Shown here piece by piece: positions 7,517 through 64,000 of a stretch of 64,000 nucleotides of DNA. Origin of the DNA: a virus; IMG/VR virus record IMGVR_UViG_3300045988_184227; one strand, 5' to 3'. The first letter of the stretch is position 1, and every line of letters starts with the position of its first letter. The notes under the pieces are model-generated. The model searched no databases, was not told the DNA's origin, and was given only the letters and a program-made list of their open reading frames with translations. Position numbers and translations under genes: made by a program.

Positions 7517-7520
7517 TTAA

Positions 7521-12158: not shown

Positions 12159-12195
12159 AAAAAAAGAACCACGAAGGGTTCTTTTATCTATTTAA

Positions 12196-41160: not shown

Positions 41161-41444
41161 TTTTCTAAAATTTTTTATCAACTTATTATATCATAAAATA
41201 TTTAAAATAACAAATTCAATTCAAAATTGAATCAAAAAATATACAAAAATAAATAAAAATATAAATAACGAATTAACCTTAAATAATACTCTGAAATAAT
41301 TCCGTGATAACATTTTTGATAAATATATAACTCATCAAATCTATTTTAGCTTATTTATTATCAATAAAAAGTTATTAACTTTTTATTAATTGGAAATGTT
41401 ATATAATAGTTAAAGAAATAATAAAAAAAGGAATGGTATAGATT

Positions 41445-43271
41445 TTGAATAAAAAATTATCATCAATCATTGCTTCCGGAGCTATTTTGTTAACAGTTGC
41501 ACCAGCAGTTGGTACACTTGTTCAAGTTGGAAGCAACGTTGTTCACGCAGAAGCGTTTAAAGCTGGAGCTCAAGCAACCCGAACATTAAAATTTAATGTA
41601 AAAGCTGATGAAAAAATTAATACAAAAACTGAAACCGTTGGGGAACCTGTTGACTTAATTATGATTGTTGACGGTTCAGGATCTCAAATCGAACAATTTA
41701 ATAGTGGTGACAACCCAAGTCGACGTAAAGTTAACGTTGCGCTTGGTGACGCATTAAAACTTGTAGAATCACTCCCTGAAGGATCACAGGTTATGATTGC
41801 TTCTTATGACACTAACACAGTTGATTCTTATGCCAAAAAAGGAATTACAAAATTAATTCCTAAAGCAGACGCAATTAAAGTATTGAATGATGTTAAAGAC
41901 TCATCACCAGAATCAAAATACCAATTGGAATGGTATCGTGTTTGGGAGAAATACCTAAATAACGCTGGAGATAAAATCTACGATAAGTCATCAACAGACA
42001 GACCATTTGAAGAAGCTTATGAAAAAGATCCTGCTAAGAAAAACAAATACGTATCTGTAATTCAATTTACGGATGAGTGGGTCCAAGATGAGGCAATTGA
42101 CAGCTCATTTGCAGACTGGTCAAAAGCTAAAGCTAAAACATTTATGAGTGTTCTTTATCCTAAAGCAGATGGAAACCTTCGTTCTGAAACAATGATGAAG
42201 GCGGTTGGACACCCTAACATCTACAATTCTCGTGGAAAGAGTGACGCTGCTCGTCAAAAGGATATCATCGAAAAATTCAAAGAAACAGCAATCAAGACAA
42301 CAACTACAAAAACTCGAGTTTCACCAGAGGGAACTGTAACTGTTTCAGCAGAGAAAGATGTAAATCTTTCAGAAGTTGAGTTGATTTCACCAAAGGGTAC
42401 TAAAACAAAACTTGAAGTCAAAGATGGAAAGGCTACTTGGTCTGGAAAATTTGATGAAGACGGCGAATACAAAGTGAATTACAAATTTACTGGAACACCT
42501 TCTGAAATTAAAAAAGTAACCGGTGATGTTCAAGTTTCAGGCAAATCAGTAGTTAACGCTGTTGATACGATTGAGCCAAACAAATCTTCTGCTGTTGATA
42601 CAGCCAAAGAGGACATCCCTTTCAAAACCATTGAAGAAAAGGATCCAACACTTCCATTTGGTGAACGTAAGGTTAAGGTTAAAGGGGTTCTTGGTGAACG
42701 CACAATTACAAAAACATACGATGTTCTTAATGGTAAACGTGTAGGAGAACCTAAAGTTGATACAAAAGTTACAAAAGAACCGGTTGATGAAGTGGTCCTA
42801 GTTGGTACTAAAGTAGACGAAAAAGTAACTTACAAGACAATCCACAAAGGTGACGATGGTAAGGTTCTTAAAGAGGAAAATACCGCAGCTGAAAAGTCAG
42901 AGTTTGATGGTTACAAATACGTTAAAACCGAAGCTGATAATTCTGACAAACTAAACGTAGTGACAACCCATTACTACCATAAACTTATTACAACCTATAA
43001 AGGTGTAGACGCAAACGGTAAAGAAGTTGTACTAGAAAAAGTTGACGGAACTAAGAACAAGAAAGACTTTAAGGGTTACATCTTCGAGAAAACAGAAAAA
43101 TTAGATAACGGTGACGTGGTTCATCACTACAAAGCTAAAAAGGCTGATGAAAAGAAAAAACCAGTAGAGACCGGAGCTAATGCTTCTTCTGCTATTATGC
43201 CATTAATTGGTATTTCTAGTGGGCTTGGAGTTCTAGGTGCTGCTGCATACATCGTTAAACGTAAAAAATAA
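41445..43271 (+). CDS. VWA-domain plus G5-like-domain surface protein with C-terminal PVETG-hydrophobic-KRKK anchor (TTG start)
   Basis: Signal peptide. MIDAS motif DLIMIVDGSGS. G5-like GERKVKVKGVLGERTITKTY...VDEVVLVGTK. C-terminal KKPVETGA, a hydrophobic segment, then KRKK. Confidence 0.7.
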   Translation: MNKKLSSIIASGAILLTVAPAVGTLVQVGSNVVHAEAFKAGAQATRTLKFNVKADEKINTKTETVGEPVDLIMIVDGSGSQIEQFNSGDNPSRRKVNVALGDALKLVESLPEGSQVMIASYDTNTVDSYAKKGITKLIPKADAIKVLNDVKDSSPESKYQLEWYRVWEKYLNNAGDKIYDKSSTDRPFEEAYEKDPAKKNKYVSVIQFTDEWVQDEAIDSSFADWSKAKAKTFMSVLYPKADGNLRSETMMKAVGHPNIYNSRGKSDAARQKDIIEKFKETAIKTTTTKTRVSPEGTVTVSAEKDVNLSEVELISPKGTKTKLEVKDGKATWSGKFDEDGEYKVNYKFTGTPSEIKKVTGDVQVSGKSVVNAVDTIEPNKSSAVDTAKEDIPFKTIEEKDPTLPFGERKVKVKGVLGERTITKTYDVLNGKRVGEPKVDTKVTKEPVDEVVLVGTKVDEKVTYKTIHKGDDGKVLKEENTAAEKSEFDGYKYVKTEADNSDKLNVVTTHYYHKLITTYKGVDANGKEVVLEKVDGTKNKKDFKGYIFEKTEKLDNGDVVHHYKAKKADEKKKPVETGANASSAIMPLIGISSGLGVLGAAAYIVKRKK

Positions 43272-43366
43272 AATATTTTTATAAAGTCGGGTGGGTGATT
43301 CCCATCCGCTTTTATAATTTTAGAAAAAAAACAAACTTTAACAGTTTTAGAAAGAGGGTGCTTGTT

Positions 43367-44149
43367 TTGATTACAACAAACCAAAATCACAATTTGCTTT
43401 TAGAATTAGAAAAACACATTCTTAAGGTTCTAGATCAATATTCAAAATCTGGAGACCAATTTCTTAATTTTCCAGAAAAGGGTGTATTCCCCCCTAATAA
43501 AATGAGAATCGGGGTTGGACATAGAAGCTCCAAAATTGTATTCTGCATTTTTAATGATAAGTTCTACTGTGTAAACTCGGGAGAAATGTTGCCAATTGAT
43601 CAGTTTGTAACGCTTTACGATTCTAGCATTGACTTTCAAAAAGAGATGACAGATATCGTAGTAAACGCCGATGAGTTTGCAAAGATTCTTGTTAATCGTG
43701 TGGCAAATTACAATTTTAATACATTTTATTACGACAAAATATATGGATTTCTTTATGAATATATGATTAAAGGAGAAGCCTCCAAGCGTGAGGCACGTGA
43801 ATTTCTGTATAGATTTTACGAACTTTCAAACGAAGACAGTGCTTACAAACATAGCTTGCAAGATTTCGTCTATAACCTACTTTTCAAAGGATCTGATAGC
43901 CTTGCTGTAAAACATCTGAAATCTAAGCCATACTCTCAGACTTTGAATAAAAATTCAAACTCTGATTTTTCAAAAGTCTTATCTGATTTTGTTACAGATG
44001 AAAATAAACTCCTGGAATTTCTTCAGAGTTTAGGTAAGTCAACTTTTGGGGATTGGGCCTTTGATTACCTGGAAAAAGAATGGGACAATCTATTTGATTT
44101 TGATAAAGAAAAATTCAAAAAATTATTGTCAGATAACAATATCGAATAA
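43367..44149 (+). CDS. Paralog family B member 1 (TTG start)
   Basis: LLLELEKHILKVL...IVFCIFNDKFYCVNSGEMLPIDQFVTLYD aligns with 44245 and 51762. Confidence 0.55.
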   Translation: MITTNQNHNLLLELEKHILKVLDQYSKSGDQFLNFPEKGVFPPNKMRIGVGHRSSKIVFCIFNDKFYCVNSGEMLPIDQFVTLYDSSIDFQKEMTDIVVNADEFAKILVNRVANYNFNTFYYDKIYGFLYEYMIKGEASKREAREFLYRFYELSNEDSAYKHSLQDFVYNLLFKGSDSLAVKHLKSKPYSQTLNKNSNSDFSKVLSDFVTDENKLLEFLQSLGKSTFGDWAFDYLEKEWDNLFDFDKEKFKKLLSDNNIE

Positions 44150-44244
44150 TTCTTTGCGAGAAAATTGGAGGTTTCTTGAAACTTCCAATTTTTATTTTTT
44201 GTGGTATAATTTTTAAAAAAAGAATAAAGAAAGAAGGATTGTTT

Positions 44245-45492
44245 ATGATTCAAACTAATAGTGGTGGTCTTCTGCTGAGATTAGAACAGAAGATTTTGGA
44301 GTCAATTAATCTATACGTCGATTCTGGAGAACAGTTTTTAAATATTCCTGATCGTGAAGTATTCGATGATGAATTTATCAAATTTAAAGCAAAGAATATT
44401 AAAAAAGTAGTATTCTGCTTAGACAACAATAAATTTTATCTTTTATCAAATGGAGGAGCTCTTCCGAGGGATAAGTTTGTTGTGCTTTTTGATGAGGAGA
44501 AATACGGATATGAGATTCCGGACACATTAACCTCAGAACTAATGAAAAATATTTTATTAACGAGATTCTCAAAAGGAAAATTCGGAATTTTTTCTTGTGA
44601 TGATTTTTATCAGTTGCTTTTCAAATATCACAAGTATTGTGATTCGAAGAACTCTGATTTAGATTTGGATGAAAGCAACTTTAGGACAGCTTTGAGACGA
44701 TATAAGTTTTCAAACACAAATAGTGACTTTGAGGTTGAACTCAAGGATTTTGTTTTTGATGTATTTTTTAAAAGTGAAAATAAGTATGCAATTGTCTCTT
44801 TTGAAAAGGGTTATTTGACCACTCAGTTAGAAGATTTTTTCTTCAATTTTATAAATAGTGAAGATAAGTTGTTATTTTTCTTCAAGAATTTAACAAAACC
44901 ACTTGGTAGATCTGAAAAGAAACTTCTATTTTCAATTTCAAAGAAAATTCCTGATTTTAGTTTGTTAAACTTTTACAAAAACTTATTATTAGACTACAAC
45001 GAAATATCTGTTGCGGATTTAATTTCAATTGCTAATGAATTGTGTGATGATTTTTTTAAGTTATTCGAAGATTCAAACTTAAATATTAAGGTAACACCGA
45101 GATTTAACGAGGCTTATTTTGAAAATAATAAGGATGAAAGTTTCGAAATTAATTTTGGGAAACTTGTGGAAGATAAAAGGATTCAGATGATTGGCCTTGA
45201 AAGTTTAGTGAGTAAAATAGAGGATCGATCTAAATATTTAAAAGAATACAGAGATTCTTTACAAAAAAGATTAGATAGAGGTAATCTTGATACATCGAAA
45301 TTTAAGGATGATTTTTCTAGATTTAATACAGAATACATTGAATTTAATGTTGGGTTAAAAACTTTAATTCTATTTAAGAAGCAATTATCCGACAAGGAAA
45401 GTGAATCTTTAGTTGAATCGTTAAAAAAAATTAGTGTGAATCTGGCTGGAACTGGGTTTTCAGGCCAATTTGCTCAAATTCACGAAAATTAA
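44245..45492 (+). CDS. Paralog family B member 2
   Basis: LLLRLEQKILESI...VVFCLDNNKFYLLSNGGALPRDKFVVLFDEE. RBS AGAAAGAAGG. Start refined from the ORF track. Confidence 0.6.
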   Translation: MIQTNSGGLLLRLEQKILESINLYVDSGEQFLNIPDREVFDDEFIKFKAKNIKKVVFCLDNNKFYLLSNGGALPRDKFVVLFDEEKYGYEIPDTLTSELMKNILLTRFSKGKFGIFSCDDFYQLLFKYHKYCDSKNSDLDLDESNFRTALRRYKFSNTNSDFEVELKDFVFDVFFKSENKYAIVSFEKGYLTTQLEDFFFNFINSEDKLLFFFKNLTKPLGRSEKKLLFSISKKIPDFSLLNFYKNLLLDYNEISVADLISIANELCDDFFKLFEDSNLNIKVTPRFNEAYFENNKDESFEINFGKLVEDKRIQMIGLESLVSKIEDRSKYLKEYRDSLQKRLDRGNLDTSKFKDDFSRFNTEYIEFNVGLKTLILFKKQLSDKESESLVESLKKISVNLAGTGFSGQFAQIHEN

Positions 45493-45493
45493 A

Positions 45494-45521
45494 AAAGAGG
45501 TTTTAAAGCCTCTTTTTTGTT
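45494..45521. terminator. Bidirectional terminator between convergent genes
   Basis: AAAAGAGGTTTTAAAGCCTCTTTT palindromic hairpin with A/T runs on both sides. Confidence 0.65.
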
Positions 45522-47258
45522 TTAGATTTTTGCAAGATAGATTTTTAGGATTGTCTTCAAAACTGAAATTGATTCAAACTCGTCGTACAGACCAGACTCG
45601 ATACTTTCGCTGAATAAGCCAATCTTCTTCTTAAATTGTTCAGCTGTCTCACCGTCTGGAATTAGAACAGTCAGATCATCCTTGTATTGATTCAGAAAAT
45701 GTTCGAATAGTTTAACACGATCATCGGTTTCGTCGACTTTTACAGTGATTAGATTTATCAAATCTTCAAATTTGAATCCAAAAACTACAGGTTCTGAGAA
45801 AGACAATTCCTTGCCGAAATTAATCATCTGAAGTATGCGTTTTTCATAATCATCAAATTTCTTGATAAGAATTGTTGATTCGTACTTCAAATTTTTTTCA
45901 ACCTTAAATCTGCTCACAACCTTCAAAGACTCGTCCTTGTATCTTGATTTGATTTTGATAACAAATAAATCACCGAGATCAACACTTTTAGAACTGTAGT
46001 AGTAGTATCGTTCTTTTTCTTTAGTGGCTGAACCTTCCTCAAACGCAATATATTCTGATAGAAGATCATCACGATTGTCAATTTTCGATTCAATGAAATC
46101 TAGTACGTGATTAGAAATCTTGTTGAATGATGATTTTAGTAATGATTCTGGACCAACAGTACAATAAAAACTTCTAGATTTTTTAGATGTGTGATTCGAT
46201 AGATGATGATAACCATTGTCAAGGATATACAATAAAAACTTCATACCGTACCCAGGACTACGTTTTGACAGTTCCTTGAATAAATACAGAATGAAATTAT
46301 CAGTATCTTCCAACACCTCTTCAAATTGCATACCGAGAGATTCCAGTTTTTGATTTAACTTTTCTTCATCATCAAAGCTGTCGTAAAGATCTTGTTTTGT
46401 ATACAAACTATACAAATATTTAGAAATATAGTTCAATCTCAACTTTGAGTTGTTATATTTATCTTTGGAATCGATTTCAGGAATCAAATTATCAATAAAG
46501 TTATCCCGTTCGTTCTTTACGAAAGATTTTACGTACTCTTCAAAAGGTTTTGTGTAAGAGAGAAGATTCTGATTCATTATTTCAAAACCATCTACTGATA
46601 ATTTTAAAGCGTGTGTCCACTCTTCTGAAGTAGATTCAGTGAAAATTAGAGTTTTAAGGGCCTCATCACGCTCACTTTCGCTAAGAATGCAAAGCGGAAC
46701 TGGGAATCTACCTGAACGAACCCAGTGTTCAGTTGGTTTATCTAAGAAATTATTAGAATAGGTAGACTCGTACTCTAGTAATTGTTGGTAAAGTTCTTTT
46801 AGGTTTTTTACCACAAATTTTTTAGCCGCACTCTCAACAAACTTTTTCAATGCGTCCTTATCATCAATCTTTGGCTCAATATATCCAAAATTATTTTTGT
46901 ATAAAGACAAACCAAAAGCGTCTTTCAATAAGGATGAACCTTTATTTTTGTTGAAGTTTATAGTACCAATCAGAATAGCTTGTTGCTCTAACTTACAACG
47001 TGAAATACCATTCATCCTAAATATAAATTTTTCCGTATCAAACAAGTACCAAACGTCGATCTTTTTGAACATTAACGTTTTCAAAGATCCTTCTTCCTTG
47101 TTAAGATAGTTACCCTCATCTTTGAAATTGTAGATTGCAAAGCATAGATCATCTACATTTTCTTTGCTAAATTTGAAGTCAGATTTTGATACACGCTCAA
47201 AAGCACTCTTAATCTTTTTAATAGTCTCCATCTTGCTGGATCCTGATGTTTTAATCAT
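45522..47258 (-). CDS. Paralog family C member 1
   Basis: VWYLFDTEKF near the N-terminus. C-terminal IESGLYDEFESIS. CTATTTAAATAG palindrome plus SD leader. Confidence 0.6.
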   Translation of the reverse strand: MIKTSGSSKMETIKKIKSAFERVSKSDFKFSKENVDDLCFAIYNFKDEGNYLNKEEGSLKTLMFKKIDVWYLFDTEKFIFRMNGISRCKLEQQAILIGTINFNKNKGSSLLKDAFGLSLYKNNFGYIEPKIDDKDALKKFVESAAKKFVVKNLKELYQQLLEYESTYSNNFLDKPTEHWVRSGRFPVPLCILSESERDEALKTLIFTESTSEEWTHALKLSVDGFEIMNQNLLSYTKPFEEYVKSFVKNERDNFIDNLIPEIDSKDKYNNSKLRLNYISKYLYSLYTKQDLYDSFDDEEKLNQKLESLGMQFEEVLEDTDNFILYLFKELSKRSPGYGMKFLLYILDNGYHHLSNHTSKKSRSFYCTVGPESLLKSSFNKISNHVLDFIESKIDNRDDLLSEYIAFEEGSATKEKERYYYYSSKSVDLGDLFVIKIKSRYKDESLKVVSRFKVEKNLKYESTILIKKFDDYEKRILQMINFGKELSFSEPVVFGFKFEDLINLITVKVDETDDRVKLFEHFLNQYKDDLTVLIPDGETAEQFKKKIGLFSESIESGLYDEFESISVLKTILKIYLAKI

Positions 47259-47369
47259 TTTATTTTCCTTCTTTCTATTTAAATAGTTTTATTTTTATTC
47301 TCTTAAATTATAACAGATTAGATAATAAAATCTTTAATAAAAAAAGAAGAGTTTGAACTCTCCCTTTTA

Positions 47370-47900
47370 CTATCGAGTAATAATATTTGGAAACTCACCG
47401 TTATTCAAAAAATTCTGATAAATTGACAACAACTTTTTCTTAATAAAACTTTTAAACTTGTAATTTATAAATCTATCAAGATAATAATCGTTAACTTCCA
47501 ACTTTCGATTTTCTGATCCGCTTAACAGGCTTTTTCCAAAAATCGCTCTAAACTGTCGAGTTTCACGACTTGAATTTAAGTGCAACTCACCCAATAAAAT
47601 AGGTTGACTCACACACAAATCTTCAGTAAATTTTGGAAGATAATCAATATCGTATTTGGAGAAGATTTCAAATGTGTTTGTTTCACAGAAGTAATAAATA
47701 AGAAAAACAGGAAGCTTCAATTCACTTACAGATCCAGCAGTAACACATACATAAGGATATTGATTTAGCTTCTTAATAGATAATCTAACAACATCCATAA
47801 ATTGTTCTGAAAGTGGATATTCTCCTTTTTGGATAATATCTTTTATTTGCTTCATCTGTTCAAACTGAGAAGATTCTTCTGTTTTTGTGTTTAAAACCAT
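47370..47900 (-). CDS. Hypothetical protein
   Basis: Leader CTGAATTTATTTCAG plus SD at 47901-47930. Confidence 0.5.
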   Translation of the reverse strand: MVLNTKTEESSQFEQMKQIKDIIQKGEYPLSEQFMDVVRLSIKKLNQYPYVCVTAGSVSELKLPVFLIYYFCETNTFEIFSKYDIDYLPKFTEDLCVSQPILLGELHLNSSRETRQFRAIFGKSLLSGSENRKLEVNDYYLDRFINYKFKSFIKKKLLSIYQNFLNNGEFPNIITR

Positions 47901-47975
47901 ATTTCCCTCTTTCTACTGAAATAAATTCAGATTTTTTAATTTCTTAAATTATAAAAGAGGAGGGAGGATACCCCC

Positions 47976-49781
47976 TCAGTTTTTCATCAATTCTAAAACA
48001 AGGTTTACAAATTCAAGTAAAATTTTAGGTTTTTCAAACTCGTCATAAATTCCATTCTCGATTCCGATCCTCAAATAATCAATCTGTTTTGAAAACAATT
48101 CTGGTTCTGAATTTTCAAGAATAACTTTCACTTTTCCAGGATTATTATCTTTAATTTCTTTGATTATTTTGATGTGATCCATAGTAGATTGATAATTAAA
48201 ATCAACTTCGTCAATTAACAACTTAAGGATTGTTTCAAACTCAAGTCTTATAAAAAGAGAACCACCTATCTTAACCGGAATATTATTGGATATGGATTTT
48301 AAAATCGCAAGATCCACGGTTGAGTGACCAAACGTAATAGAATTATTTTTACTTGTAAGGTTATACACCAAATCAATGTCAAGGTTAAATTCGCTTAATT
48401 TATCTAGCTCTTTATCCTTGATAAATAAGTCCAGCTCTTCCAAAATCAACTTTTTATTGTATGCGTCGCCAAGAAATACAGAACCTCTCCCAACCTTACC
48501 AATAGTAAGCCCATTTTGAAAATCATAAACTAAACGTTCAAGTTCTTTTTTGTTGAAATCTTTTGTTGCGGATTCAAGTAGCTTACTGAATAAAAGCTGA
48601 ACAAATTTTCCTTTCGTTCCTGTAGAGAAAAAGAATGATGTTGACAAATTTAAAGTACTCATTGTCGAGTTCATAAATCGTCCACCTGCAAGTTCACCTG
48701 TAATTTCCGCCAATCCTAAAACAACATTTTCTGCATTACTATTGAATGAAGATCTAGCTATCTCTCCTAATAATTCAATAAAAGCAGTTTGATTAGAATA
48801 ATACTTGCTATCTTCAAAATAAAGATTTTCACAACATACACTAGAACCTTTTAGGTAGAAAACACCAGCTTTTTCAGTAAAGAAATATTTTCTAAACCAA
48901 TTACAGATAAGTCCTAGAAGTTCACTTCGTGTAGACATAGTTTTTAAGCCGGTGTAACTATTTGCTTGAACAAACATATTAACGATATCAGTTTTAATAT
49001 CCGATAAATATTGGTTAAATTCTTCACGAAAAGTTGAGAGATAATCCCAAGACTCAAATTCAACAACCTTTACTTCTCCGTCATAGTCAGATGTTGATTT
49101 CAACGGGTCTGCTGTTTCAAAAAATAAATATCTATACATCCACTCTCGTTCGTTCTTTTTTAGCAACGATAATGGTGTATTAAAAATAAATTTAATATCT
49201 CTTTTAGGTGATGTAAGTAAACCTTCAGTACCTAGAACACCACTATGAAGAAAAGTTTCATCTTCTAAAACCAGTCGTTCGCAAACTAATTTAAGTTTTT
49301 CACGAACTCTTTTTGTCAAATATTCAACTATAAATTTCTTAGCTGAATCCTCATCGGTTAATTGAAGACCCTTCTTTTTCATACCCCAAGAATCATTGTA
49401 TTCGATTAATGAATAGCACTCTATAAGTTTTTTAGATTTTCTAGATTGATTTAGATTGAAAGTACCTAAATATAGGACATCTTTATCTAAAATGTTCTGA
49501 TGTTTAATATCATCCAACCTTTCACCTTTGATTAAAATGATCTTATCTTCTAAGAAACTATACCAAATTTGAAATTTGCTAAAATTAACTCCATCTAGTG
49601 AATTTTCGCTTGGATACCAAGGGGAAGTGAATCCTTTTAGTAATTTAAGTGAAAAATCTATATTATCTTCAGATACTGTAATGTTTTTGCCCTTAATCAA
49701 GGATTTGATTTTATCAATTCTTTCCCAACGAACCGGTTCCAATTCTCGTTCTGTTGAAATCGAATTACTTTTTACTACCAT
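47976..49781 (-). CDS. Paralog family C member 2
   Basis: IWYSFLEDKI. C-terminal IGIENGIYDEFEKPK. Leader CTGAATTTAATTCAG plus SD at 49782-49815. Confidence 0.6.
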   Translation of the reverse strand: MVVKSNSISTERELEPVRWERIDKIKSLIKGKNITVSEDNIDFSLKLLKGFTSPWYPSENSLDGVNFSKFQIWYSFLEDKIILIKGERLDDIKHQNILDKDVLYLGTFNLNQSRKSKKLIECYSLIEYNDSWGMKKKGLQLTDEDSAKKFIVEYLTKRVREKLKLVCERLVLEDETFLHSGVLGTEGLLTSPKRDIKFIFNTPLSLLKKNEREWMYRYLFFETADPLKSTSDYDGEVKVVEFESWDYLSTFREEFNQYLSDIKTDIVNMFVQANSYTGLKTMSTRSELLGLICNWFRKYFFTEKAGVFYLKGSSVCCENLYFEDSKYYSNQTAFIELLGEIARSSFNSNAENVVLGLAEITGELAGGRFMNSTMSTLNLSTSFFFSTGTKGKFVQLLFSKLLESATKDFNKKELERLVYDFQNGLTIGKVGRGSVFLGDAYNKKLILEELDLFIKDKELDKLSEFNLDIDLVYNLTSKNNSITFGHSTVDLAILKSISNNIPVKIGGSLFIRLEFETILKLLIDEVDFNYQSTMDHIKIIKEIKDNNPGKVKVILENSEPELFSKQIDYLRIGIENGIYDEFEKPKILLEFVNLVLELMKN

Positions 49782-49885
49782 TATTTTTCCTTCTTTCTAA
49801 CTGAATTAAATTCAGAATTATTATTTCTTAAATTATAATAGCAAGAAGTTGTCTCCTGAAATAAAAAAAGTAAAAGGAAAACCTT

Positions 49886-51631: not shown

Positions 51632-51761
51632 TTTTTCCTTCTTTCTAGCTGTAATAATAACAGCGAAATATTATTTCTTTAATTATAACAGACTTGAATT
51701 TGCTTTTATAATTAAAGAAATAATAAATCTGAATTTATTTCAGTAGAAAGAAGGTATTAAA

Positions 51762-53057: not shown

Positions 53058-53059
53058 AT

Positions 53060-53090
53060 AAAAAACAGCTTAAAAGCTGTTTTTTTGTTT
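53060..53090. terminator. Bidirectional terminator between convergent genes
   Basis: AAACAGCTTAAAAGCTGTTT hairpin flanked by A and T runs. Confidence 0.65.
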
Positions 53091-54649: not shown

Positions 54650-54777
54650 TATTACCTTCTTTCTGTAACTTTTAAAGTTACTATTTTTTCTTTAATTATA
54701 ACAGTCTTGTTTATTCTTCTATAATTTTAAAAATATTGATATTGAGTGTATACCGCACTCTAGAAAGAGGGAATGAA

Positions 54778-55767: not shown

Positions 55768-56665
55768 AACAGAAGAGAAGAAACTATCCCAGAACATTAA
55801 GAAAGAAATCAATCGATACACGGTTAAAAAGATTTTTACAACTGAAACTGCAAAGGATTTGGCTGAAAAGTTGTTTATTCTTGCGGGTGGCGATCAGGAA
55901 CCTTACAAACTTAAAACTGGAAAGAATAAAGGTTTGTTCCGGATTCCAAAGGCTCAAGCATACGATATCATTATCGAATATTGGGATTATAACATTGCAC
56001 TCCAGTTTGCACGAAATGAACTGATGACAGTATTACCTAACGGTAAGTATAAGTACGATAAGTACAATCAGTATCGAACGGCGGAGCGCAATTATCGTCT
56101 AGAATCACAACAGGAAAATTTCTGGGCCAATCGTCAAGGTAACTTAGACCAAACCATTCAACAAATTAACCGTCGCTACTGTATCTCACGTCGAACACGT
56201 GAGAAACTGGTAGTAGAGATGGCGCTTAATCAACTTAGCGTGACACACTTCAATGCACTACGAAATGATTTTATCGAGTATGAGATTTTTAAAAACAATT
56301 CGGAAGTGTTCCCAACGTTGAAACATAGTGCCGGTTTGGACTATTTTGTTGATGGCGTACCATACGATCAGAAAGTTTCTCGTAGCCTCGGTGCTATGTT
56401 TGAAAAGGATTACGATTCGCACGATGAGGCAGTAAAAGCAGCTCGAAATAATCCTAGCAAACTTGCACAAAGTCTATTTGAAAATCAGGATGTTTACCGA
56501 CTTGAAAAGGGTGATATCTGTAACCGACTTTACGTTGTTTACTTGGATGAGAGTAGCTTTGAAAACATCAAGTTTAGCACACGAAGGATTACAAACAAGG
56601 AGGTGACAATGGTTCACTTCCCGGACAAACCGGATTGCTACAAGGCAATGGTGGTTTTCGTCTAA
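55760..56665 (+). CDS. Hypothetical protein
   Basis: Overlaps the stop of the upstream gene. Start ambiguous between 55751 and 55760. Confidence 0.5.
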   Translation: MSKTEEKKLSQNIKKEINRYTVKKIFTTETAKDLAEKLFILAGGDQEPYKLKTGKNKGLFRIPKAQAYDIIIEYWDYNIALQFARNELMTVLPNGKYKYDKYNQYRTAERNYRLESQQENFWANRQGNLDQTIQQINRRYCISRRTREKLVVEMALNQLSVTHFNALRNDFIEYEIFKNNSEVFPTLKHSAGLDYFVDGVPYDQKVSRSLGAMFEKDYDSHDEAVKAARNNPSKLAQSLFENQDVYRLEKGDICNRLYVVYLDESSFENIKFSTRRITNKEVTMVHFPDKPDCYKAMVVFV

Positions 56666-56705
56666 AACACAAAAAAGAAAAGAGGTTTTGCCCCTTTTCT
56701 TTTTT

Positions 56706-57968
56706 TTATTTTAATTTTAATAAAGCCTCGATTGCGTTGATAATCTTATCGTAATTCTCATCTTTAACAATTAAAGAATCATAATCAATAATTGCTGTAT
56801 AAAATTCAGATAGGAAATCAAACAAGCGGTTCGTCCCTTCAATCAAATCAAAGAACTTTTTACTTTCGAGTTGAATCAACGTATCTGTTGCTTTTACCAA
56901 TCCAATCATAAATTTAGTTCTACTATTTTTTGATTTTGCTTTGGATAATTCTCTAAACTCTACGGTATCAAGATCAACTTGCTTTTTAACTCCAAATTCG
57001 TTTTCAATATCGATAATCAAATAAACGAAATCATCTTTATTTTCAGAATTTGCATAGTAGAAGTCGTGAATAAAAGAGTGTTGTCGTTTCATTTGGAATT
57101 TTTTCCAAAACTCATCGGTGGCACATTCAAATCCGTGATACTTATATATCAACTGAACTAATCCGTAATCCAATTGAAGCTTGGAAGCATATTCAGGCTT
57201 TAGAATATTATCTCGAATATAATCTTTGGGTAGATTTTTGATTCCATTTTCGTAATCCATCCAATCAGTCGGATAGTAAGATTGTGGAGTAATAATCGTT
57301 TTAGAAATTTCGTACTCAAAATTCTTAATCGAATTATTTTTAACCCAATCAAGATAGTCTGTATCAATAAATAGATTGTTTTTTTCAAAACGTTCAGATT
57401 TTGATAGTAGACTTAAATAGCTGGATAATTTATAGTGTTTACTATCACTAAGACCCCTTAACCATTCCAAAAAACGACTGTTCGCTTTTAAAATTTCATC
57501 TACAAACTCATCATCCTCAAGCTCCACCGACCTATCTGTTCGCTTTTGAATAACGAATTGTAAATCATCCTTGTCCGCTTCAAGAAAGATGGTATCAATA
57601 ACATCCTTTGTTAATTGATTTAAGGTGAAATATTTCAAGGTTTTCTTTAAATAGTTATTTAGAATCTCCTTTTTCTTATCAATAGGATGATTGACATAAA
57701 ACTCGATATCTAAATATAAACCCAAAGGTGTACAATCCGAATTTAATCTGTTGATATATTTATCAATCGGATCACTGCTATTTTTATATCCGTTTTCGTT
57801 TTTAAACAAATAAGAGTTTAAAACTCGAGAGTAGTGGACGGAAATGAGATCTTCGCCACCGCCGTCTTTCAAAATCTCTAAATCGCCAAAAATAAATTTG
57901 CAATCATCAATGGCTTTTTCAGCTTGATTTAGGATAAAGAAATTATTATCCTTCGTGTTTTTTACCAT
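56706..57968 (-). CDS. Paralog family D member 2. Start refined to MVKNTKD.
   Basis: RBS AGAAAGAAGG 8 nt upstream of the Met at 57968. N-terminal FGDLEILKDGGG motif. Confidence 0.55.
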   Translation of the reverse strand: MVKNTKDNNFFILNQAEKAIDDCKFIFGDLEILKDGGGEDLISVHYSRVLNSYLFKNENGYKNSSDPIDKYINRLNSDCTPLGLYLDIEFYVNHPIDKKKEILNNYLKKTLKYFTLNQLTKDVIDTIFLEADKDDLQFVIQKRTDRSVELEDDEFVDEILKANSRFLEWLRGLSDSKHYKLSSYLSLLSKSERFEKNNLFIDTDYLDWVKNNSIKNFEYEISKTIITPQSYYPTDWMDYENGIKNLPKDYIRDNILKPEYASKLQLDYGLVQLIYKYHGFECATDEFWKKFQMKRQHSFIHDFYYANSENKDDFVYLIIDIENEFGVKKQVDLDTVEFRELSKAKSKNSRTKFMIGLVKATDTLIQLESKKFFDLIEGTNRLFDFLSEFYTAIIDYDSLIVKDENYDKIINAIEALLKLK

Positions 57969-58020
57969 TATTTTCCTTCTTTCTAAAAGTATTAAACTTA
58001 TTTTCTTCAATTATAAGAGA

Positions 58021-58050
58021 AAAAAAGAGAACCCGTTTGGATTCTCTTAA
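58021..58050 (-). terminator. Rho-independent terminator downstream of the flotillin-like gene
   Basis: AAGAGAATCCAAACGGGTTCTCTT hairpin followed by a T-run on the minus strand. Confidence 0.65.
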
Positions 58051-58055
58051 TTCTA

Positions 58056-59540
58056 CTATTCTGAAATAACTTCAGGAGTTGCTGGAACTTCTTCAACTGT
58101 TGCAAATTTGATTTGTCGTCCAATCGCATTTCCAGTGATATTAGCTCCAACCAATCCACTTAGAAGTTGGCGGATGTCCATTCCAGAACCTTCGTTGATT
58201 GTGCTGATACTTGTCATAATATCACCAATCATCTTAGAGTTGTTACCATCTCCGTACATTGTGATACTATCAACATTAGCAAGTGGTTGAGTTGCTGCCG
58301 CAACAACTTGAGGTAGAACCTCAAAGTACATTTGAGCGATACCAGCTTGATCCATTTTAGCAAGGGCTTCTGCTTTCTTCTCCAAACCTTCAGCTTCAGC
58401 TTCTAGGCGAAGACGAATTGCTTCCGCTTCTGCACGTCCTTTAGCTTCGATACCCTTAGCTTCTTCTTCTGCTTGACGGCGGTTAGATTCAGCACGGCGT
58501 TCTTGAGCTTCAGATTCTTTTTGTACACGGTACAATTCAGCTTCAGCTTCACGTTGGCTAAGTGTAAGTTGGGCTTCAGCTTCACGTTCTTTCTTGTATT
58601 TTTCTGCGTCAGCTTTAGCTTTGATCTCAGCAGCCAAACGTTGACGTTGAACTTCAACGCCTTTTTCAGCGATAAGTGCTTCTTGTTCTTGTTTCGTGAT
58701 ATCAGCTTGCGAACGCTCAAACTCGATAGTTTTACGTTGACGCTCTGTCTCAATTTCAAGAACAGCTCCGCTCTTAGCAATTTCAGCGTCTGATTTGGCT
58801 TGAAGTTCGGCTTGTTTAATGGTCAATTCAGTCTGACGTTGTGAAATTTCAAGGTCAGCAGCTACACGAGCTTCGTTAGCGAGACGATCTTGTTCAGCTT
58901 TAGTTTCTTTTTCTTCACGTTCTGCAATAGCACGAGCGATTGCAGCGTCTTTCTTGATCGCAACAATATTATCAACACCGAGGTCGAGAATTACGTTATT
59001 TTGATCTTCGAAACTTTGAACCGTGAAGGCGATAACTTCGATACCCATCTTAGCAAGGTCGGGACTAACGTTTTCTTGTACTTTACCAGCAAATTCTTGA
59101 CGGTTGTTTACCATTTCACGCAAGTTCATCTGACCGATGATCTCACGAAGATTACCTTCAAGAACGTCTGTTACTTGTGCAGAGATATCATCTGTGTTCC
59201 AGTTCAAGAAGTTTTCAGCAGCTGCGGCAAGCATTTCTTTTGATGTTCCGATTTTAAGAGTTACAGCAGCGTCAGCTTTAACGTTGATGAAATCTTTCGT
59301 AGGAACAAAGTTTGACGTTTTTACATCAGTTTTGAATTGCTCTACCGAGATGTAATTTCGTGTAGAGAGAAATGGAATCATCCATCCTGCTTCACCAAGT
59401 AGTACTCGCTGTTTTCCTCCACCGGTAATAACAACGGCTTGGTTAGGTGGCGCAATTACGTACCCTGCGTAAAACAATGATAAGAGCACAAGGAATCCAA
59501 CTAATCCCCCAACAATCCAAAAAATAATACCTAAGTCCAA
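58056..59540 (-). CDS. Flotillin-like SPFH protein (FloA/YqiK family), TTG start
   Basis: N-terminal TM helix. SPFH core. Long Ala/Glu/Arg/Lys coiled-coil repeats (EAEAQ, EAEAE). TGATATAAT extended -10 upstream. Confidence 0.7.
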   Translation of the reverse strand: MDLGIIFWIVGGLVGFLVLLSLFYAGYVIAPPNQAVVITGGGKQRVLLGEAGWMIPFLSTRNYISVEQFKTDVKTSNFVPTKDFINVKADAAVTLKIGTSKEMLAAAAENFLNWNTDDISAQVTDVLEGNLREIIGQMNLREMVNNRQEFAGKVQENVSPDLAKMGIEVIAFTVQSFEDQNNVILDLGVDNIVAIKKDAAIARAIAEREEKETKAEQDRLANEARVAADLEISQRQTELTIKQAELQAKSDAEIAKSGAVLEIETERQRKTIEFERSQADITKQEQEALIAEKGVEVQRQRLAAEIKAKADAEKYKKEREAEAQLTLSQREAEAELYRVQKESEAQERRAESNRRQAEEEAKGIEAKGRAEAEAIRLRLEAEAEGLEKKAEALAKMDQAGIAQMYFEVLPQVVAAATQPLANVDSITMYGDGNNSKMIGDIMTSISTINEGSGMDIRQLLSGLVGANITGNAIGRQIKFATVEEVPATPEVISE

Positions 59541-59656
59541 ATATGACTTCCTCCTATATTTGTGATAGGAACATTATATCAAATAAAATAATTAAAAGCA
59601 ATAGTTTTTTTATAAAAAAAGAAGATTTTTTTAATCCTCTTTTTAAATATTTTTAT

Positions 59657-60271
59657 TTAAGAAAATCTATCATCATAGTAAACTTTATCGACTTTTTTAA
59701 GCAAATCAAATACCTCATCTTCGCCACAATATTCAAAGCAACATTCCATCGCCCTATGGTTATTAGACCAATATTTCAGATCTACGAGTATATCTAGAGT
59801 TTCGATTACATCTGTGTTTTTCATCCACTTCAACCACAAATAAAAAATTGGATAATCATCGTCTTCATCCTTTACAAATAGAATATTTTTATCATTTTCT
59901 TTAACTGCTTTTTCATAAAGATGGAGTGATTCCTCATTATCACATTCAACTACAAAATTCTTTAAAAACTCATCACGGTCAAAAGGCTCAATACCAGACA
60001 ACCTCATTTCATCAAAATCAAAAATAATTTCTTCTCCATTGGTAAAGAAAAAAATATTGTCGCACAATTCAAATAAACCAATTAACCCATCAACACCCTC
60101 TTCTTCATAAACTTCCAGCGCTTCTTCTTCACTAAATGCAGGACAACAAGAAGGATCAAACTTTCCAGAATTAAATTCTCTTAAGAAATCTAAAGCGTCA
60201 TTTTCTTCACCAAACAATAAAACAGAACCTGTAAGCTCGTCCCAATAAACATCAAGATTTTTGTATTTCAC
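59657..60271 (-). CDS. Hypothetical acidic protein (GTG start)
   Basis: AGAAAGAAGG lies 8 nt upstream of GTG. Confidence 0.5.
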   Translation of the reverse strand: MKYKNLDVYWDELTGSVLLFGEENDALDFLREFNSGKFDPSCCPAFSEEEALEVYEEEGVDGLIGLFELCDNIFFFTNGEEIIFDFDEMRLSGIEPFDRDEFLKNFVVECDNEESLHLYEKAVKENDKNILFVKDEDDDYPIFYLWLKWMKNTDVIETLDILVDLKYWSNNHRAMECCFEYCGEDEVFDLLKKVDKVYYDDRFS

Positions 60272-60399
60272 GGTTAAAACCTTCTTTCTTTTTTATATCT
60301 TATATTAAATATTATAACAAATAAAAGCGTTTTTGTCAAAGTTAAACAGAATATAAACAAAAAAGCACTGCAATCATTTCAGCGGTGCTTTTTCTGTTT

Positions 60400-61008
60400 T
60401 TAATTCAGCAATTCAAGAATCTTCTCTGCATTAACTTCAGGATCGTCAAATCCGGAAAGGATCAGGAAGTCACAAGGGAAGTCTTCCGAGAGATTCAAGA
60501 ACTCATCTCGAATTTGATAATGAAACTCAAGTGGTTTCGAATCAATAGCGTCACACTCCCGGCCATTTTCAGCTAGTCGTTCTTGAACAGCACGAGGATC
60601 AGCGTCGATCAATACACACAAATCCGGTAGTGCCATATTCTCATCTTCTTGCAAATTGATATCGATGATTTCATTACGAGTTAGATGTGTTCCTGTCAGT
60701 TGATAAACCAAGTTCGAAATGATAGAACGGTCAAAAATGACAATTTTTCCATCATTGATTGCCGGAATAACAACCTGATTGTTTAGCTCCGCACGTGATT
60801 TTGCCATAAGTTCAGTCTGTTCAATCTCATCCAAATCCAATTCACCTTTCCGCCAACGAATGATGTCACCAGCGACTGAGGACTTCTCGTAAGGTTCCTT
60901 CACAAATAGAGTCGTTTCCGGATCAAGATTTTTCTTGAGGATGTTTAAGACCGTTGATTTACCAACGCCTTCTCCCCCTTCAATTGCAATACGATTGTAT
61001 TTTTTCAT
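60400..61008 (-). CDS. tmk: Thymidylate kinase
   Basis: P-loop IAIEGGEGVGKST. DRS..SNLVYQ motif. Typical length of about 200 aa. Confidence 0.75.
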   Translation of the reverse strand: MKKYNRIAIEGGEGVGKSTVLNILKKNLDPETTLFVKEPYEKSSVAGDIIRWRKGELDLDEIEQTELMAKSRAELNNQVVIPAINDGKIVIFDRSIISNLVYQLTGTHLTRNEIIDINLQEDENMALPDLCVLIDADPRAVQERLAENGRECDAIDSKPLEFHYQIRDEFLNLSEDFPCDFLILSGFDDPEVNAEKILELLN

Positions 61009-61135
61009 TAATATAATACCTTCTTTCTTAATATAAAATATCTTTCTAAAATTATAAAAGAAAATAAAAAATTCTGTTATAATTTTAGAGAAGACAAAAA
61101 CTAAATGAATTTAAGAAGGGGAAAGAAGGAGAAAA

Positions 61136-61696
61136 ATGATTAAACTTGCAAACAATTCTAATGAATTTATTGGTTTAGAATCACTATTAAAAGATATTGA
61201 TTCTATTTCAGAAGAGACTATTTTTAGTATTGATTCGGATGAATCATCGTTTTTGTATTATGATTCGTCAAGTAACATTAATGGAATCGAAAACTTAAAA
61301 CTTCCAGCTGATGACAAACTGGATCTTTATTACATCCCGAGCAAAAGGTGCTTCGTCATCAAGAATAAATATTCTGTTTTAGAAACTGAGAGTTCTGATT
61401 TATTGTTTAGAACTGGTATCTCTTTTTCTGTACCAGGATTTGATTCCGGGGATAATTCCTTACTTTTTAGAAATATGAGAGTTGCCTCACAAATCTTGAT
61501 AAAGAAATTTATTAAGGGAGATTTATCTAAGGCAGATGTTGAAACTGTGCGAACTTTGATGTTTGTGATCAACTACGATGAATGTGGAGTTATCAACAAT
61601 ACGATCTCTAATACAAAAATTCTATTTGATGAATTTCAAGCTGAATTATTTATAGATCAAATGAAATCTTATTGTTTGACACAAAACCAAATTTAG
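61136..61696 (+). CDS. Hypothetical protein
   Basis: RBS GGGGAAAGAAGGAG. Terminator at 61700-61730. Confidence 0.5.
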   Translation: MIKLANNSNEFIGLESLLKDIDSISEETIFSIDSDESSFLYYDSSSNINGIENLKLPADDKLDLYYIPSKRCFVIKNKYSVLETESSDLLFRTGISFSVPGFDSGDNSLLFRNMRVASQILIKKFIKGDLSKADVETVRTLMFVINYDECGVINNTISNTKILFDEFQAELFIDQMKSYCLTQNQI

Positions 61697-61975
61697 ATAA
61701 CAAAAAGACCTATTGGGTCTTTTTTATTTATGTTGAAAATTTTTTGTTCGTTTAAGAATCATTAATTGATAATATTTTAGACGTTATTGAAATAAAAAAA
61801 GAGGCTGCATAACAACCTCTTTAATATAAATGTAAGAGACGTAGTGATGTATGGTAGTCATCACAACTTTACTAGAAAAAACCCTCTTTGAATTTTTTGT
61901 AGCGAAGGGCGTTTTATCGCTACTATTAGTTTATCAAATTTTTATTCGTTCGTCAATTACTTTTTTTAGAAATAA

Positions 61976-63802
61976 TTATTTTCTTTTAGATTTAAACTTA
62001 GCAACTCCTAGAAGAGCAACGGAAGCCCCGAGTGCTCCGATTGGAAGTAACATTGATCCAGCTGAAGCTCCAGTTTCTACTGGTTTTTTCTTCTCATCAG
62101 CTTTTTTAGCCTTGTAGTGATGAACAACATCACCGTTATCTAATTTTTCTGTCTTTTCGAAGATGTAACCCTTAAAGTCTTTCTTGTCCTTAGTTCCGTC
62201 AACTTTTTCTAAAACAACTTCCTTACCGTTTTCATCCACACCCTTATAGGTAGTGATGAGCTTATGGTAGTAGTGAGTTGTCACAACGTTCAACTTATCT
62301 GAATTATCAGATTCTGTTTTAACGTACTTGTATCCTTCGAACTCGGATTTTTCAGCAGCAGTATTTTCTTCCTTGAGAACCTTACCATCATCACCTTTGT
62401 GGATTGTCTTGTAAGTTACTTTCTCTTCTACCTTAGTACCAACGAGAACAACCTCATCAACTGGTTCTTTTGTAACTTTGGTATCAACTTTAGGTTCACC
62501 CACACGTTTTCCATTTATCATATTGTAAGTTTTAGTGGTAGATTTCTTACCTAGCTCACCCTTAACTTTAACCTTACGTTCTCCTAACGGAAGTGTAGGA
62601 TCCTTTTCTTCAATTGTTTTGAAAGGAATATCCTCTTCTGATGTATCTACAGAACTTGACTTATTAGGCTCGATTGTATCAACTGCTTTTGCAACTTCTT
62701 TATTTGATACTTGAATAGTACCTGTAATTGTTTTAGTCTCTGAAGGAGTTCCCGTAAACTTGTAGTTTAGAGTGTATTCACCATCCTCCTCAAATTTACC
62801 CTTCCAAGACCAAAATGTTGCTTCACCGGAGTTTTTTTCTAGTTTTTTCTTCACTCCAGTAGGAGATACTAGCTCAACTTCAGTTAAATCTACACCATCT
62901 TCTGCTTTAACAGACACAACCCCGTCAGGAGAAATACGATCCTTAGTAACAGTTGTTTTTAAGCCAGAGCTTTTGAATTTTTCAATAATATCTTTTTGTC
63001 GTACTGCGTCAGTTTTTCCACGAGCGTTGTAAATGTTAGGATGTCCGATTTTTTTCATCTGCTCTTCAGACTTTGTAGTTCCACTGATTTTTGTGTAAAT
63101 CACACTCATAAATGTTTTAGCATTCTTCTTAGACCACTCAGCAAAAGAAGTGTCGATGTCTTCGTTCTGAATCCACTCATCCGTGAATTGAACAACAGAT
63201 ACGTATTTGTTCTTTTTAGCTATGCTCTTTTCGTATGCTTCTTCGTATGGAAGAGTTTCAGAATTTTTATTGTAAATTTTTGAATCTACAGTCTTAAGAT
63301 AATTTTCCCAAGTTGTATACCAGTCAAAATCAGACAGTTTTGATTTATCCTTAACATCATTAAGGACTTTAATAGCGTCAGCCTTTGGAATCAAATTACT
63401 AACGCCTTTTGCAGCATAAGAATCTGTTGTGTTCCAAGTGTAAGAGGCAATCATAACTTGCGATCCTTCAGGAAGAGATTCTACAAGCTTCAAAGCGTCA
63501 CTTAATGCAACGTTTACTTTTTGTCTATGTGGATTATCTCCACTGTCGAAAGGAACAACAAAAGACCCTGATCCGTCGATAATCATAATTAAATCAACTG
63601 GTTCAGCTACAGTCTCAGTTTTCGTATTCACCTTTTCTTCAGCCTTAACATTAAATTTTAGCGTTCTTGATCCAGTAGATCCAGCTTTAAAGGCTTCTGC
63701 GTGTACGATATTACCGCCAACCTGAACAAAAGTCCCAAGTGCTGGTGATACAGTAACCATCAATGCACCAGTAGCCAAGATAGATGATAATTTTTTATTC
63801 AA
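61976..63802 (-). CDS. VWA plus G5-like anchored surface protein, paralog 2. TTG start aligned to paralog 1.
   Basis: MIDAS DLIMIIDGSGS. The C-terminal half is over 90% identical to 41445-43271, including KKPVETGA, a hydrophobic segment, then KRK. Confidence 0.7.
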   Translation of the reverse strand: MNKKLSSILATGALMVTVSPALGTFVQVGGNIVHAEAFKAGSTGSRTLKFNVKAEEKVNTKTETVAEPVDLIMIIDGSGSFVVPFDSGDNPHRQKVNVALSDALKLVESLPEGSQVMIASYTWNTTDSYAAKGVSNLIPKADAIKVLNDVKDKSKLSDFDWYTTWENYLKTVDSKIYNKNSETLPYEEAYEKSIAKKNKYVSVVQFTDEWIQNEDIDTSFAEWSKKNAKTFMSVIYTKISGTTKSEEQMKKIGHPNIYNARGKTDAVRQKDIIEKFKSSGLKTTVTKDRISPDGVVSVKAEDGVDLTEVELVSPTGVKKKLEKNSGEATFWSWKGKFEEDGEYTLNYKFTGTPSETKTITGTIQVSNKEVAKAVDTIEPNKSSSVDTSEEDIPFKTIEEKDPTLPLGERKVKVKGELGKKSTTKTYNMINGKRVGEPKVDTKVTKEPVDEVVLVGTKVEEKVTYKTIHKGDDGKVLKEENTAAEKSEFEGYKYVKTESDNSDKLNVVTTHYYHKLITTYKGVDENGKEVVLEKVDGTKDKKDFKGYIFEKTEKLDNGDVVHHYKAKKADEKKKPVETGASAGSMLLPIGALGASVALLGVAKFKSKRK

Positions 63803-63928
63803 AATAAGTACCAATCCTTTTTTATTTCTTTATCTATTATAGGTTAACGTATCAAGATATTTTGGGCGATTTTGAAAATTAAAAAAGATATCCAACTTGG
63901 ATACCTTTTCATAACTTAAACTTAGTTT

Positions 63929-64000
63929 TTATTTTCTTTTAGATTTAAACTTAGCGATACCAACAAGAGCAACGGAAGCCCCGAGTGCTCCGATTGGAAG
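63929..64000 (-). CDS. Third VWA/G5 anchored-protein paralog, C-terminal end only (truncated by the window edge)
   Basis: 63941-64000 is near-identical to 61990-62050. Translation is LPIGALGASVALVGIAKFKSKRK followed by a stop. Confidence 0.6.
   Translation of the reverse strand, partial: LPIGALGASVALVGIAKFKSKRK

Follow-up and report, generated by a model that had tools for sequence, protein, structure and literature searches.

Paralogous genes for predicted surface adhesins on a giant phage-like element of the human mouth, and the meaning of their inverted arrangement

Two similar surface-protein genes that read towards each other across 18.7 kb of phage-like DNA raise the question whether they form an inversion switch, and what such an element would do with proteins of this kind. 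We met this arrangement in IMG/VR virus record IMGVR_UViG_3300045988_184227, of which a stretch of 64,000 nucleotides (nt), called the window here, was analysed. Towards one end of the window lie the open reading frames (ORFs) A1 and A2 on opposite strands and the end of a third copy, A3, and an inspection of the DNA letters and their translations (the sequence-only reading) had taken them for anchored adhesins flanking an invertible segment. We consider it probable that these genes encode adhesins displayed on the surface of the carrier cell, and that they belong to a diversifying family on an oral phage-like element of roughly 380 kb. That A1 points the other way than A2 and A3 is best explained by past duplication, with no programmed switch behind it. 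Integrative and conjugative elements (ICEs), plasmids and a few prophages are known to give Gram-positive hosts surface adhesins, whereas a recombining adhesin family on elements of 350-386 kb that are common in the human mouth was not described in the literature searched.

A family of predicted surface proteins

According to the ORF list and the translations, A1 (41445-43271, plus strand) codes for 608 amino acids (aa) of a putatively exported surface protein, and A2 (61976-63814, minus strand) for a 612-aa paralog of the same architecture. The probable start of A2 is a TTG codon at 63802, conserved and common to A1, and its C-terminal tail is PVETGASAGSMLLPIGALGASVALLGVAKFKSKRK. As the sequence-only reading had it, both are paralogous ORFs on opposite strands, inverted relative to each other; they are full-length, with 18,704 nt between them, and can be aligned from end to end. 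Its third copy was found as well: positions 63929-64000 (minus strand) hold the last 23 codons and the stop codon of A3, which stands in tandem to A2 and is cut by the window edge. These terminal 72 nt share 93% identity with the A2 tail (direct repeat D2), and the full A3 gene of 605 aa is visible in a related contig (L004, 8069-9886). An A2 ortholog with 98% identity (P0012) was detected on a contig of 378,990 bp, and several cohorts of human oral metagenomes yielded contigs of 349-386 kb with orthologs at 90-93% nt identity.

By its sequence, the N-terminus (about aa 1-36 in A1) resembles a Sec signal peptide, as its n-region contains KK and a hydrophobic core some 20 residues long precedes VHA-EA. 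An AlphaFold model of A1, built on 45 homologs and with a predicted local distance difference test (pLDDT) score mostly above 85 for residues 64-456, led to a beta-sandwich (aa 37-64), a von Willebrand factor A (VWA) domain with a metal-ion-dependent adhesion site (MIDAS; aa 65-284, nt 41637-42296), an immunoglobulin (Ig)-like domain (aa 285-377) and a G5 domain (aa 380-456, nt 42582-42812; also found with Pfam). Two SSSPR-51 repeats (aa 464-565; Pfam and NCBIfam) and a sorting signal (aa 573-608, nt 43161-43268) with PVETG, a hydrophobic segment and then KRKK complete the protein. The top Foldseek matches of the head in the PDB were the VWA protein 4fx5 (E 3e-11), integrin beta I-like domains and two adhesins, PitA of S. 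oralis (7w6b) and SpaC of L. rhamnosus (6m48). The MIDAS residues D76-G-S78-G-S80 and T209-D210 are present in A1, with D76, S80, T209 and D210 conserved in at least 90% of the 45 homologs. No Pfam VWA family matched A1 or A2 at E <= 0.01, and the profile search against PDB sequences yielded for this domain a marginal match to Mfa5 only (E 0.88). The predicted VWA/MIDAS head, already proposed in the sequence-only reading, is thus Pfam-negative though supported structurally by the model, the fold matches and the conserved metal-site residues. The G5-like module of that reading proved to be a genuine Pfam G5 domain (PF07501; 67.7 bits for A1 and 68.0 bits for A2 against a gathering cut-off of 23; E 1e-18), with structural and profile matches to Aap and SasG (E 1.5e-26, profile search against PDB sequences). 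What had been described as a Lys-rich stalk consists mostly of the two SSSPR-51 repeats (Pfam PF18877, 33.5 and 39.5 bits, cut-off 27; NCBIfam TIGR04308, 43.8 and 46.8 bits, cut-off 35, two stretches each), and only a short K-rich linker remains of it.

The family comprises at least seven members: A1 to A3, three proteins of 705, 667 and 705 aa, which follow A3 in L004 past the window's end, and a 647-aa anchored protein encoded some 5 kb outside the window, before its start. The 705-, 667- and 705-aa proteins differ in the head and combine SSSPR-51-like repeats with a Pro/Lys-rich spacer and an AVKTGA anchor. Of the distantly related giant oral elements, L030 (a 266-kb contig) carries one homolog of 1004 aa, and three such genes stand in tandem on L032 (295 kb) and four on L038 (a 183-kb contig). 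L030 and L032 share further gene homologs with the window, and in L038 an SSSPR-51 gene is paired with a topoisomerase I/III gene, as in the window's upstream flank.

Among named bacteria, the best homologs were found in Streptococcus, mostly S. pneumoniae; these are LPNTG proteins with a length of about 855 aa and 36% identity. S. pneumoniae P0048 and P0053, annotated as 'G5 domain-containing protein' or 'putative IgA-specific zinc metalloproteinase', are homologous in head, Ig-like domain and G5 (E 3e-57), and in the conjugative element that carries the P0053 gene, its neighbours are an antigen I/II adhesin gene on one side and VirB4-like, CHAP hydrolase and VirD4-like genes on the other. 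Like A1 and A2, these ICE proteins have a signal peptide and a C-terminal sorting signal, and they are carried by a mobile element beside another adhesin. They differ in having 5-6 G5 repeats, no SSSPR-51 and a canonical LPNTG, whereas A1 and A2 have one G5, two SSSPR-51 repeats and P[VI]ETG, and occur in several copies on an element of 350-386 kb. In the pilus-tip adhesins PitA, SpaC, RrgA and GBS104 a VWA fold with MIDAS sits at the tip of a stalk, as is predicted for A1, but sequence identity is only 10-11%, and A1 and A2 would be monomeric stalked proteins with their own anchor and without a pilin operon, a pilin-specific sortase or an isopeptide pilin domain. Aap of S. epidermidis and SasG of S. 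aureus, the 'periscope' proteins with the matching G5, are likewise stalked surface proteins. As A1 and A2 have a single G5 in place of the long G5-E array, Zn-dependent zipper aggregation is unlikely for them, and the head is lectin-like in Aap but VWA in A1 and A2.

Phage genomes with a gene for a Gram-positive surface protein are also known, namely from SasX/SesI on phiSPbeta-like prophages and from the metagenomic Siphoviridae sp. ctHip2 with its 'LPXTG cell wall anchor motif domain protein' (A0A8S5RVA4). In the case of SasX, a temperate phage carries one small gene with a canonical LPXTG, unlike the giant element here with its recombining family of at least seven members and a non-canonical motif. 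The ctHip2 protein, which gave the best structural match among viral proteins (E 1.6e-28, 562 columns), is unstudied and only 22% identical. A relative on a 315-kb IMG/VR contig has a YSIRK-like signal peptide and a canonical LPKTG. Searching phages and plasmids with A1 by tblastn gave isolated G5-domain matches only; scanning IMG/VR with A1 gave no close relative, and with a profile distant adhesin homologs on otherwise unrelated contigs. From these comparisons the family looks like a mobile-element adhesin of oral Gram-positive bacteria.

A promoter- or leader-like motif, TATAAT-AGT-TAAAGAAATAA, precedes A1 (41402-41421, plus strand), and the same TATAAT-TAAAGAAATAA motif precedes A2 (63822-63841, minus strand). 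TATAAT-N0-4-TAAAGAAATAA was found at four sites of the window (41402, 51671, 51707 and 63841) with 0.01 expected by chance, two of them in a divergent intergenic region (51671-51723) between neighbouring genes. A second recurring motif, CTGTTATAATT, resembles an extended -10 element and has six sites (47306, 49831, 51681, 54694, 61084 and 31896) against 0.87 expected. Most of the examined sites of both motifs are intergenic and just upstream of genes, and the two probably represent an element-specific promoter class. Terminator-like hairpins were located directly after the A1 stop codon, with a T-run (43288-43308, plus strand), and after the A3 stop codon (63882-63910, minus strand). As the latter stands between A3 and the A2 promoter, these genes would form separate transcription units. 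By their flanking sequences, the adhesin genes appear to be integrated into the element's own transcription programme.

The C-terminal sorting signal

A1 ends in KKKPVETGA, a hydrophobic segment of 21-22 residues and KRKK, just as the sequence-only reading had noticed. The hydrophobic and basic part is AIMPLIGISSGLGVLGAAAYIV-KRKK in A1 and MLLPIGALGASVALLGVA-KFKSKRK in A2, and in both proteins a hydrophobic segment followed by a basic tail occupies the extreme C-terminus. The motif K-P-[VI]-[EK]-T-G-[AS] occurs in 28 of the 29 phage-lineage protein clusters, where P[VI]xTG is invariant, and the one exceptional cluster (P0027) is apparently C-terminally truncated; in the sister genes the motif is [DE]-A-V-K-T-G-A. 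A1 and A2 both read K-P-V-E-T-G, and their relatives P-I-[EK]-T-G or A-V-K-T-G. When isolated tails were compared with the LPXTG_anchor hidden Markov model (TIGR01167), scores of 19.4 (A1), 14.5 (A2), 19.3 (705-aa type) and 22.8 bits (P0021) straddled the cut-off of 15.9 bits, with alignment only from model position 4-5 onward, and no whole protein matched this model at E <= 0.01. The transmembrane segment and tail after TG are of one type in A1 (43161-43268) and of another in A2 (61979-62080) and A3. The two types are about 33% identical, with a ratio of nonsynonymous to synonymous substitution rates (dN/dS) of 0.69, and as the orthologs of each gene retain its type, the family contains two separate anchor variants side by side.

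When the SSSPR-51-plus-anchor region was searched against 1.84 billion representative proteins, a signal class xVxTG[A/V] appeared beside canonical LPNTG and LPKTG. In this search, AVKTGA-type proteins came from metagenomes only, with no NCBI record and with largest contigs of about 295-316 kb, and the three loci inspected were all on giant phage-like elements. Cluster look-ups for xVxTG-anchored proteins gave one named source, Anaerococcus vaginalis, almost all others being metagenomic. A clade of giant oral elements (contigs of 180-386 kb, probably jumbo phages) with a sorting-signal class of its own, [A/P/S]-[V/I]-x-T-G-A-[S/N]-A, is an unlikely generalisation. If it were true, the signal would imply a dedicated anchoring route, by an element-encoded sortase or an unrecognised host enzyme, and the element would re-dress the host surface with a recombining adhesin repertoire. 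The non-LPXTG motif poses a testable question, namely which enzyme, if any, anchors these proteins.

The carrier element and the proposed role of the proteins

Four contigs with orthologs (385,559, 379,165, 378,990 and 348,613 bp) are well above 200 kb. The window has a GC content of about 33% and contains an array of 23 tRNA genes for most amino acids with interspersed small ORFs (332-8028, minus strand), which is typical of jumbo phages. Further window genes code for a T4-type topoisomerase II, a helicase matching exonuclease V and Dda-like phage families, a DNA polymerase and nucleotide kinases, and a sigma-like factor gene and a topoisomerase I/III gene were found in the upstream flank; many window ORFs are without a family match. 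An ORF of 1064 aa beside the tRNA array (8202-11396, minus strand) was dropped as a phage marker, as it codes for a ClpB-like double-AAA chaperone (about 37% identical to ClpB of Bacilli) and is uninformative.

In the explanation that we favour, an extrachromosomal, phage-like element of about 350-386 kb would reside in a Gram-positive mouth bacterium and carry at least seven adhesin genes, each probably a transcription unit of its own with a promoter or leader motif common to neighbouring genes of the element. The products would be exported via Sec with the N-terminal signal peptide and held on the surface of the carrier or infected cell by the C-terminal K-P-[VI]-x-T-G-A, the hydrophobic helix and the basic tail. 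There, they would present a metal-dependent VWA/MIDAS ligand-binding head on an Ig-like/G5/SSSPR-51 stalk. Their purpose may be to alter what the carrier cell sticks to, which might be mucins, other bacteria or surfaces of the mouth; the analogy is to the homolog from streptococci that stands beside the antigen I/II adhesin on a conjugative element, and possible benefits would be retention in the biofilm, nearness to new hosts or exclusion of competitors. The family would diversify by homologous recombination, that is by module reassortment, short conversion tracts and unequal crossing-over of tandem copies. In this picture paralogy, domain architecture, synteny and mosaicism were demonstrated, and export, anchoring, adhesion and the gain for the element are inferred. 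If the proteins are indeed displayed, huge oral phages or elements would directly change the adhesion, co-aggregation and biofilm placement of their hosts.

Several points weigh against this explanation. The LPXTG pentapeptide of sortase-anchored surface proteins (TIGR01167 / PF00746) is absent, with the Leu-Pro positions unmatched; the 'sortase-type' anchor of the sequence-only reading is right in part only, the motif being P[VI]xTG or AVKTG. Scans of the flanks and of window ORFs of at least about 120 aa detected no sortase gene. Biochemical tests exist for a single xVxTG motif, NVQTG in CbpA of C. difficile, which SrtB did not cleave in vitro (PMC4155245, PMC4371152), and A1, A2 and A3 may therefore be membrane-tethered rather than wall-linked; with their motif, processing by a sortase is only putative. 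The ligand and the benefit to the element are suggested by analogy. Finally, Pfam and PHROG scans of about 50 window ORFs for sortase, recombinase, virion and plasmid genes, together with the flanks, revealed no virion hallmark (major capsid, portal, terminase or tail gene) in about 81 kb (the 64-kb window and about 17 kb of flanks), which is about a fifth of the element genome. Plasmid hallmarks (Rep, Par, relaxase, type IV secretion system) are missing from the same 81 kb too, and with neither set in evidence jumbo phage is the likelier label for the element, but not proven.

An unlikely alternative, though the likeliest of the rivals, is a conjugative element or giant plasmid in the manner of Finegoldia pPEP1 or the 'Hodor' megaplasmids of the gut, with the adhesins serving mating-pair formation or aggregation like the aggregation substances of ICEs and plasmids. 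The missing capsid, terminase and portal genes agree with it, as do the position of the closest bacterial homolog in a conjugative element beside VirB4/VirD4-like genes, a Toprim/DUF3991 primase-like gene between A1 and A2, and faint DUF3945 and Toprim_Crpt matches of the topoisomerase I/III gene in a relative. In addition, megablast of 41-64 kb against GenBank phages gave no match and a DNA polymerase scan of IMG/VR no close relative, and a preprint (PMC12934698) describes gut megaplasmids above 300 kb, with genes for sortases and giant anchored proteins, that had initially been binned among huge phages. However, the plasmid genes named above were not found, and the 23 tRNAs, the T4-type topoisomerase II, the Dda-like helicase and the sigma-like factor are typical of jumbo phages, as is a T4 Rnl1 ligase in the relative L030. 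A GC content of about 33% and an oral origin also differ from the 44-47% and the gut origin of the Hodors.

Superinfection exclusion or receptor masking as the main role, by a cell coat that blocks the adsorption of competitors and leaves adhesion incidental, appears improbable to us. Mobile elements commonly carry surface or exclusion genes, and several paralogs with diverged heads could cover several receptors, but none of the known exclusion proteins proved homologous (PADLOC was not consulted) and VWA/MIDAS heads on long stalks are classic ligand-binding adhesins. Even less can be said for virion components, whether for decoration or receptor binding by Ig-like, G5 and VWA domains. Phage capsids and fibres often bear Ig-like and adhesin domains, and G5 is thought to bind N-acetylglucosamine-containing polymers. 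Nevertheless, every copy has an apparent Sec-type signal peptide and the hydrophobic helix with basic tail that are a hallmark of the Gram-positive envelope, the closest homologs are LPXTG wall proteins, and the genes sit among replication and nucleotide-metabolism genes and not among structural ones, all of which makes a place in the virion very improbable.

Recombination between copies and the inverted arrangement

The C-terminal halves of A1 (42436-43178, plus strand) and A2 (62066-62808, minus strand) form an inverted repeat of 743 nt without gaps. Its identity is 82% (62-90% in 100-nt windows), and 83.5% at the nt and 90.5% at the aa level for codons 370-580, well short of the nt identity of more than 90% claimed for these halves in the sequence-only reading. 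Codons 465-580 are 87.5% (nt) and 96.5% (aa) identical, and the full-length genes 73% (nt) and 74-75% (aa). The C-terminal half is thus the better conserved one, as had been stated, but the homology spans the whole gene including the heads. The synonymous divergence (dS) in the best-conserved part is about 1.1 with dN/dS of 0.013-0.05, and dN/dS values of 0.07 for the VWA head and 0.013 for the stalk were obtained. With dS at this level, the high protein similarity of the stalk reflects purifying selection on the module and not recent homogenisation.

Conversion was assessed from paralog comparisons within one genome only; comparisons of orthologs were dropped as evidence, since an overall difference of 7-10% separates related genomes, which are mosaics in any case. 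Between A1 and A2 of the window no unusual identical tract was detected (longest run 32 nt; shuffle P = 0.25). In L004, tandem A2 and A3 share an identical tract of 122 nt in an 87% identical background, a length that none of 20,000 shuffles reached (P < 5e-5), and the G5 of A3 is 97% identical to that of A1 but 82% to that of its neighbour A2. Two proteins (P0015, P0017) combine an A3-type VWA head (98-99%) with A2-type Ig (98%) and G5 (94%) modules, and in P0003-P0009 the VWA head is of the A1 type (93-94%) but the Ig module is a novel one, with 49-59% identity to the three reference types, the heads of the paralogs being 64-76% identical to each other. Two independent assemblies (L036, L037) have a single hybrid gene with A3 head and A2 body in place of the two genes of the window lineage, the product expected from unequal crossing-over. 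Identity at third codon positions among paralogs is 0.61-0.73 in the C-terminal half compared to 0.48-0.51 in the N-terminal half, which is consistent with a stalk that is homogenised from time to time. In the population, the copies thus exchange VWA, Ig and G5 modules, and the gene conversion or recombination suggested by the sequence-only reading holds at this level, while the A1/A2 pair of the window gives no sign of recent conversion.

The further suggestion of that reading, that the inverted repeat drives homologous inversion of the 18.7-kb block and thereby a phase- or tropism-like switch of adhesins, is highly improbable: paralogs do recombine in the population and A1 and A2 do offer inverted 743-nt arms, but these arms are only 82-84% identical with no exact match longer than 32 nt, their dS of about 1.1 is high and there is no conspicuous conversion tract, a single orientation is observed, no recombinase gene was found among the scanned ORFs in or beside the block, and the variable heads would stay on their own promoters. 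Gene order and orientation are the same as in the window in nine of nine related assemblies from human oral contigs of 349-386 kb (L001-L003, L025 and L026 at the A1 junction; L004, L005, L036 and L037 at the A2 junction), as judged from assemblies and not from reads. From 39.8 to 63.8 kb, ORFs with 176 aa or more were scanned with Pfam and revealed no recombinase or invertase gene, and the only nuclease among them is a TnpB inside an insertion sequence (IS). Both A1 and A2 read into the block, with the shared stalk and anchor at the 3' side and the variable heads, with their own promoters, at the 5' side. A crossover in the 3' halves would swap near-identical stalks and leave each head with its promoter, and consequently no phenotype would be switched. 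In the Gin system of Mu, the Cin system of P1 and in shufflons, inverted repeats in paired adhesin-like genes flank a segment as they do here. Those systems, however, use a dedicated site-specific recombinase with short crossover sites, swap variable 3' ends onto a constant 5' end and are found in both orientations, none of which applies to this locus. The result thus corrects a tempting inference, as inverted paralogs are not an inversion switch here.

The bracketed block itself (43272-61975, 18.7 kb, with no strand assigned) lies outside the adhesin system and contains cytoplasmic paralog families to which no function was assigned and genes of a housekeeping type, as well as the Toprim/DUF3991 primase-like gene and flotillin/SPFH and dTMP kinase genes. 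Two multi-copy cytoplasmic families fill its left half (43295-54649), the first with 284, 438 and 431 aa and the second with 578, 176, 601 and 581 aa, and a further ORF of 519 aa stands at its right end; neither these families nor the 519-aa ORF gave a Pfam or PHROGs match. SPFH/flotillin genes are located at 2679-3530 and 58056-59540 and a PspC-domain ORF at 13097-13417 (all minus strand). The 283-aa SPFH protein is 82% identical to one in L030, and relatives also carry LemA and TPM-phosphatase genes, which suggests a module for membrane organisation or stress.

Upstream of A1, an IS605-family TnpB-only element of about 1.58 kb (39709-41285; TnpB ORF 39858-41150, minus strand) is inserted about 120 bp from the A1 promoter motif. 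Among 185,579 species genomes no close copy of this TnpB was found, the relatives being only 29-34% identical, and the attempt to infer the host from it failed. The insertion is recent, as it is absent from the related contigs L001-L003, L025 and L026.

A 384-aa ORF elsewhere in the window (17732-18886, minus strand) has a G5 domain (E 2.5e-7), no signal peptide and an acidic C-terminus with repeated [DE]-x-PTF-[VE]-D, and stands outside the anchored family. At 9769-13068 of the more divergent relative L026 (348,613 bp), two ORFs of 85 and 474 aa make up the A1 ortholog, owing to either a frameshift or an assembly error, and an extra G5 protein of 505 aa takes the place of the two genes downstream of A1 in the window.

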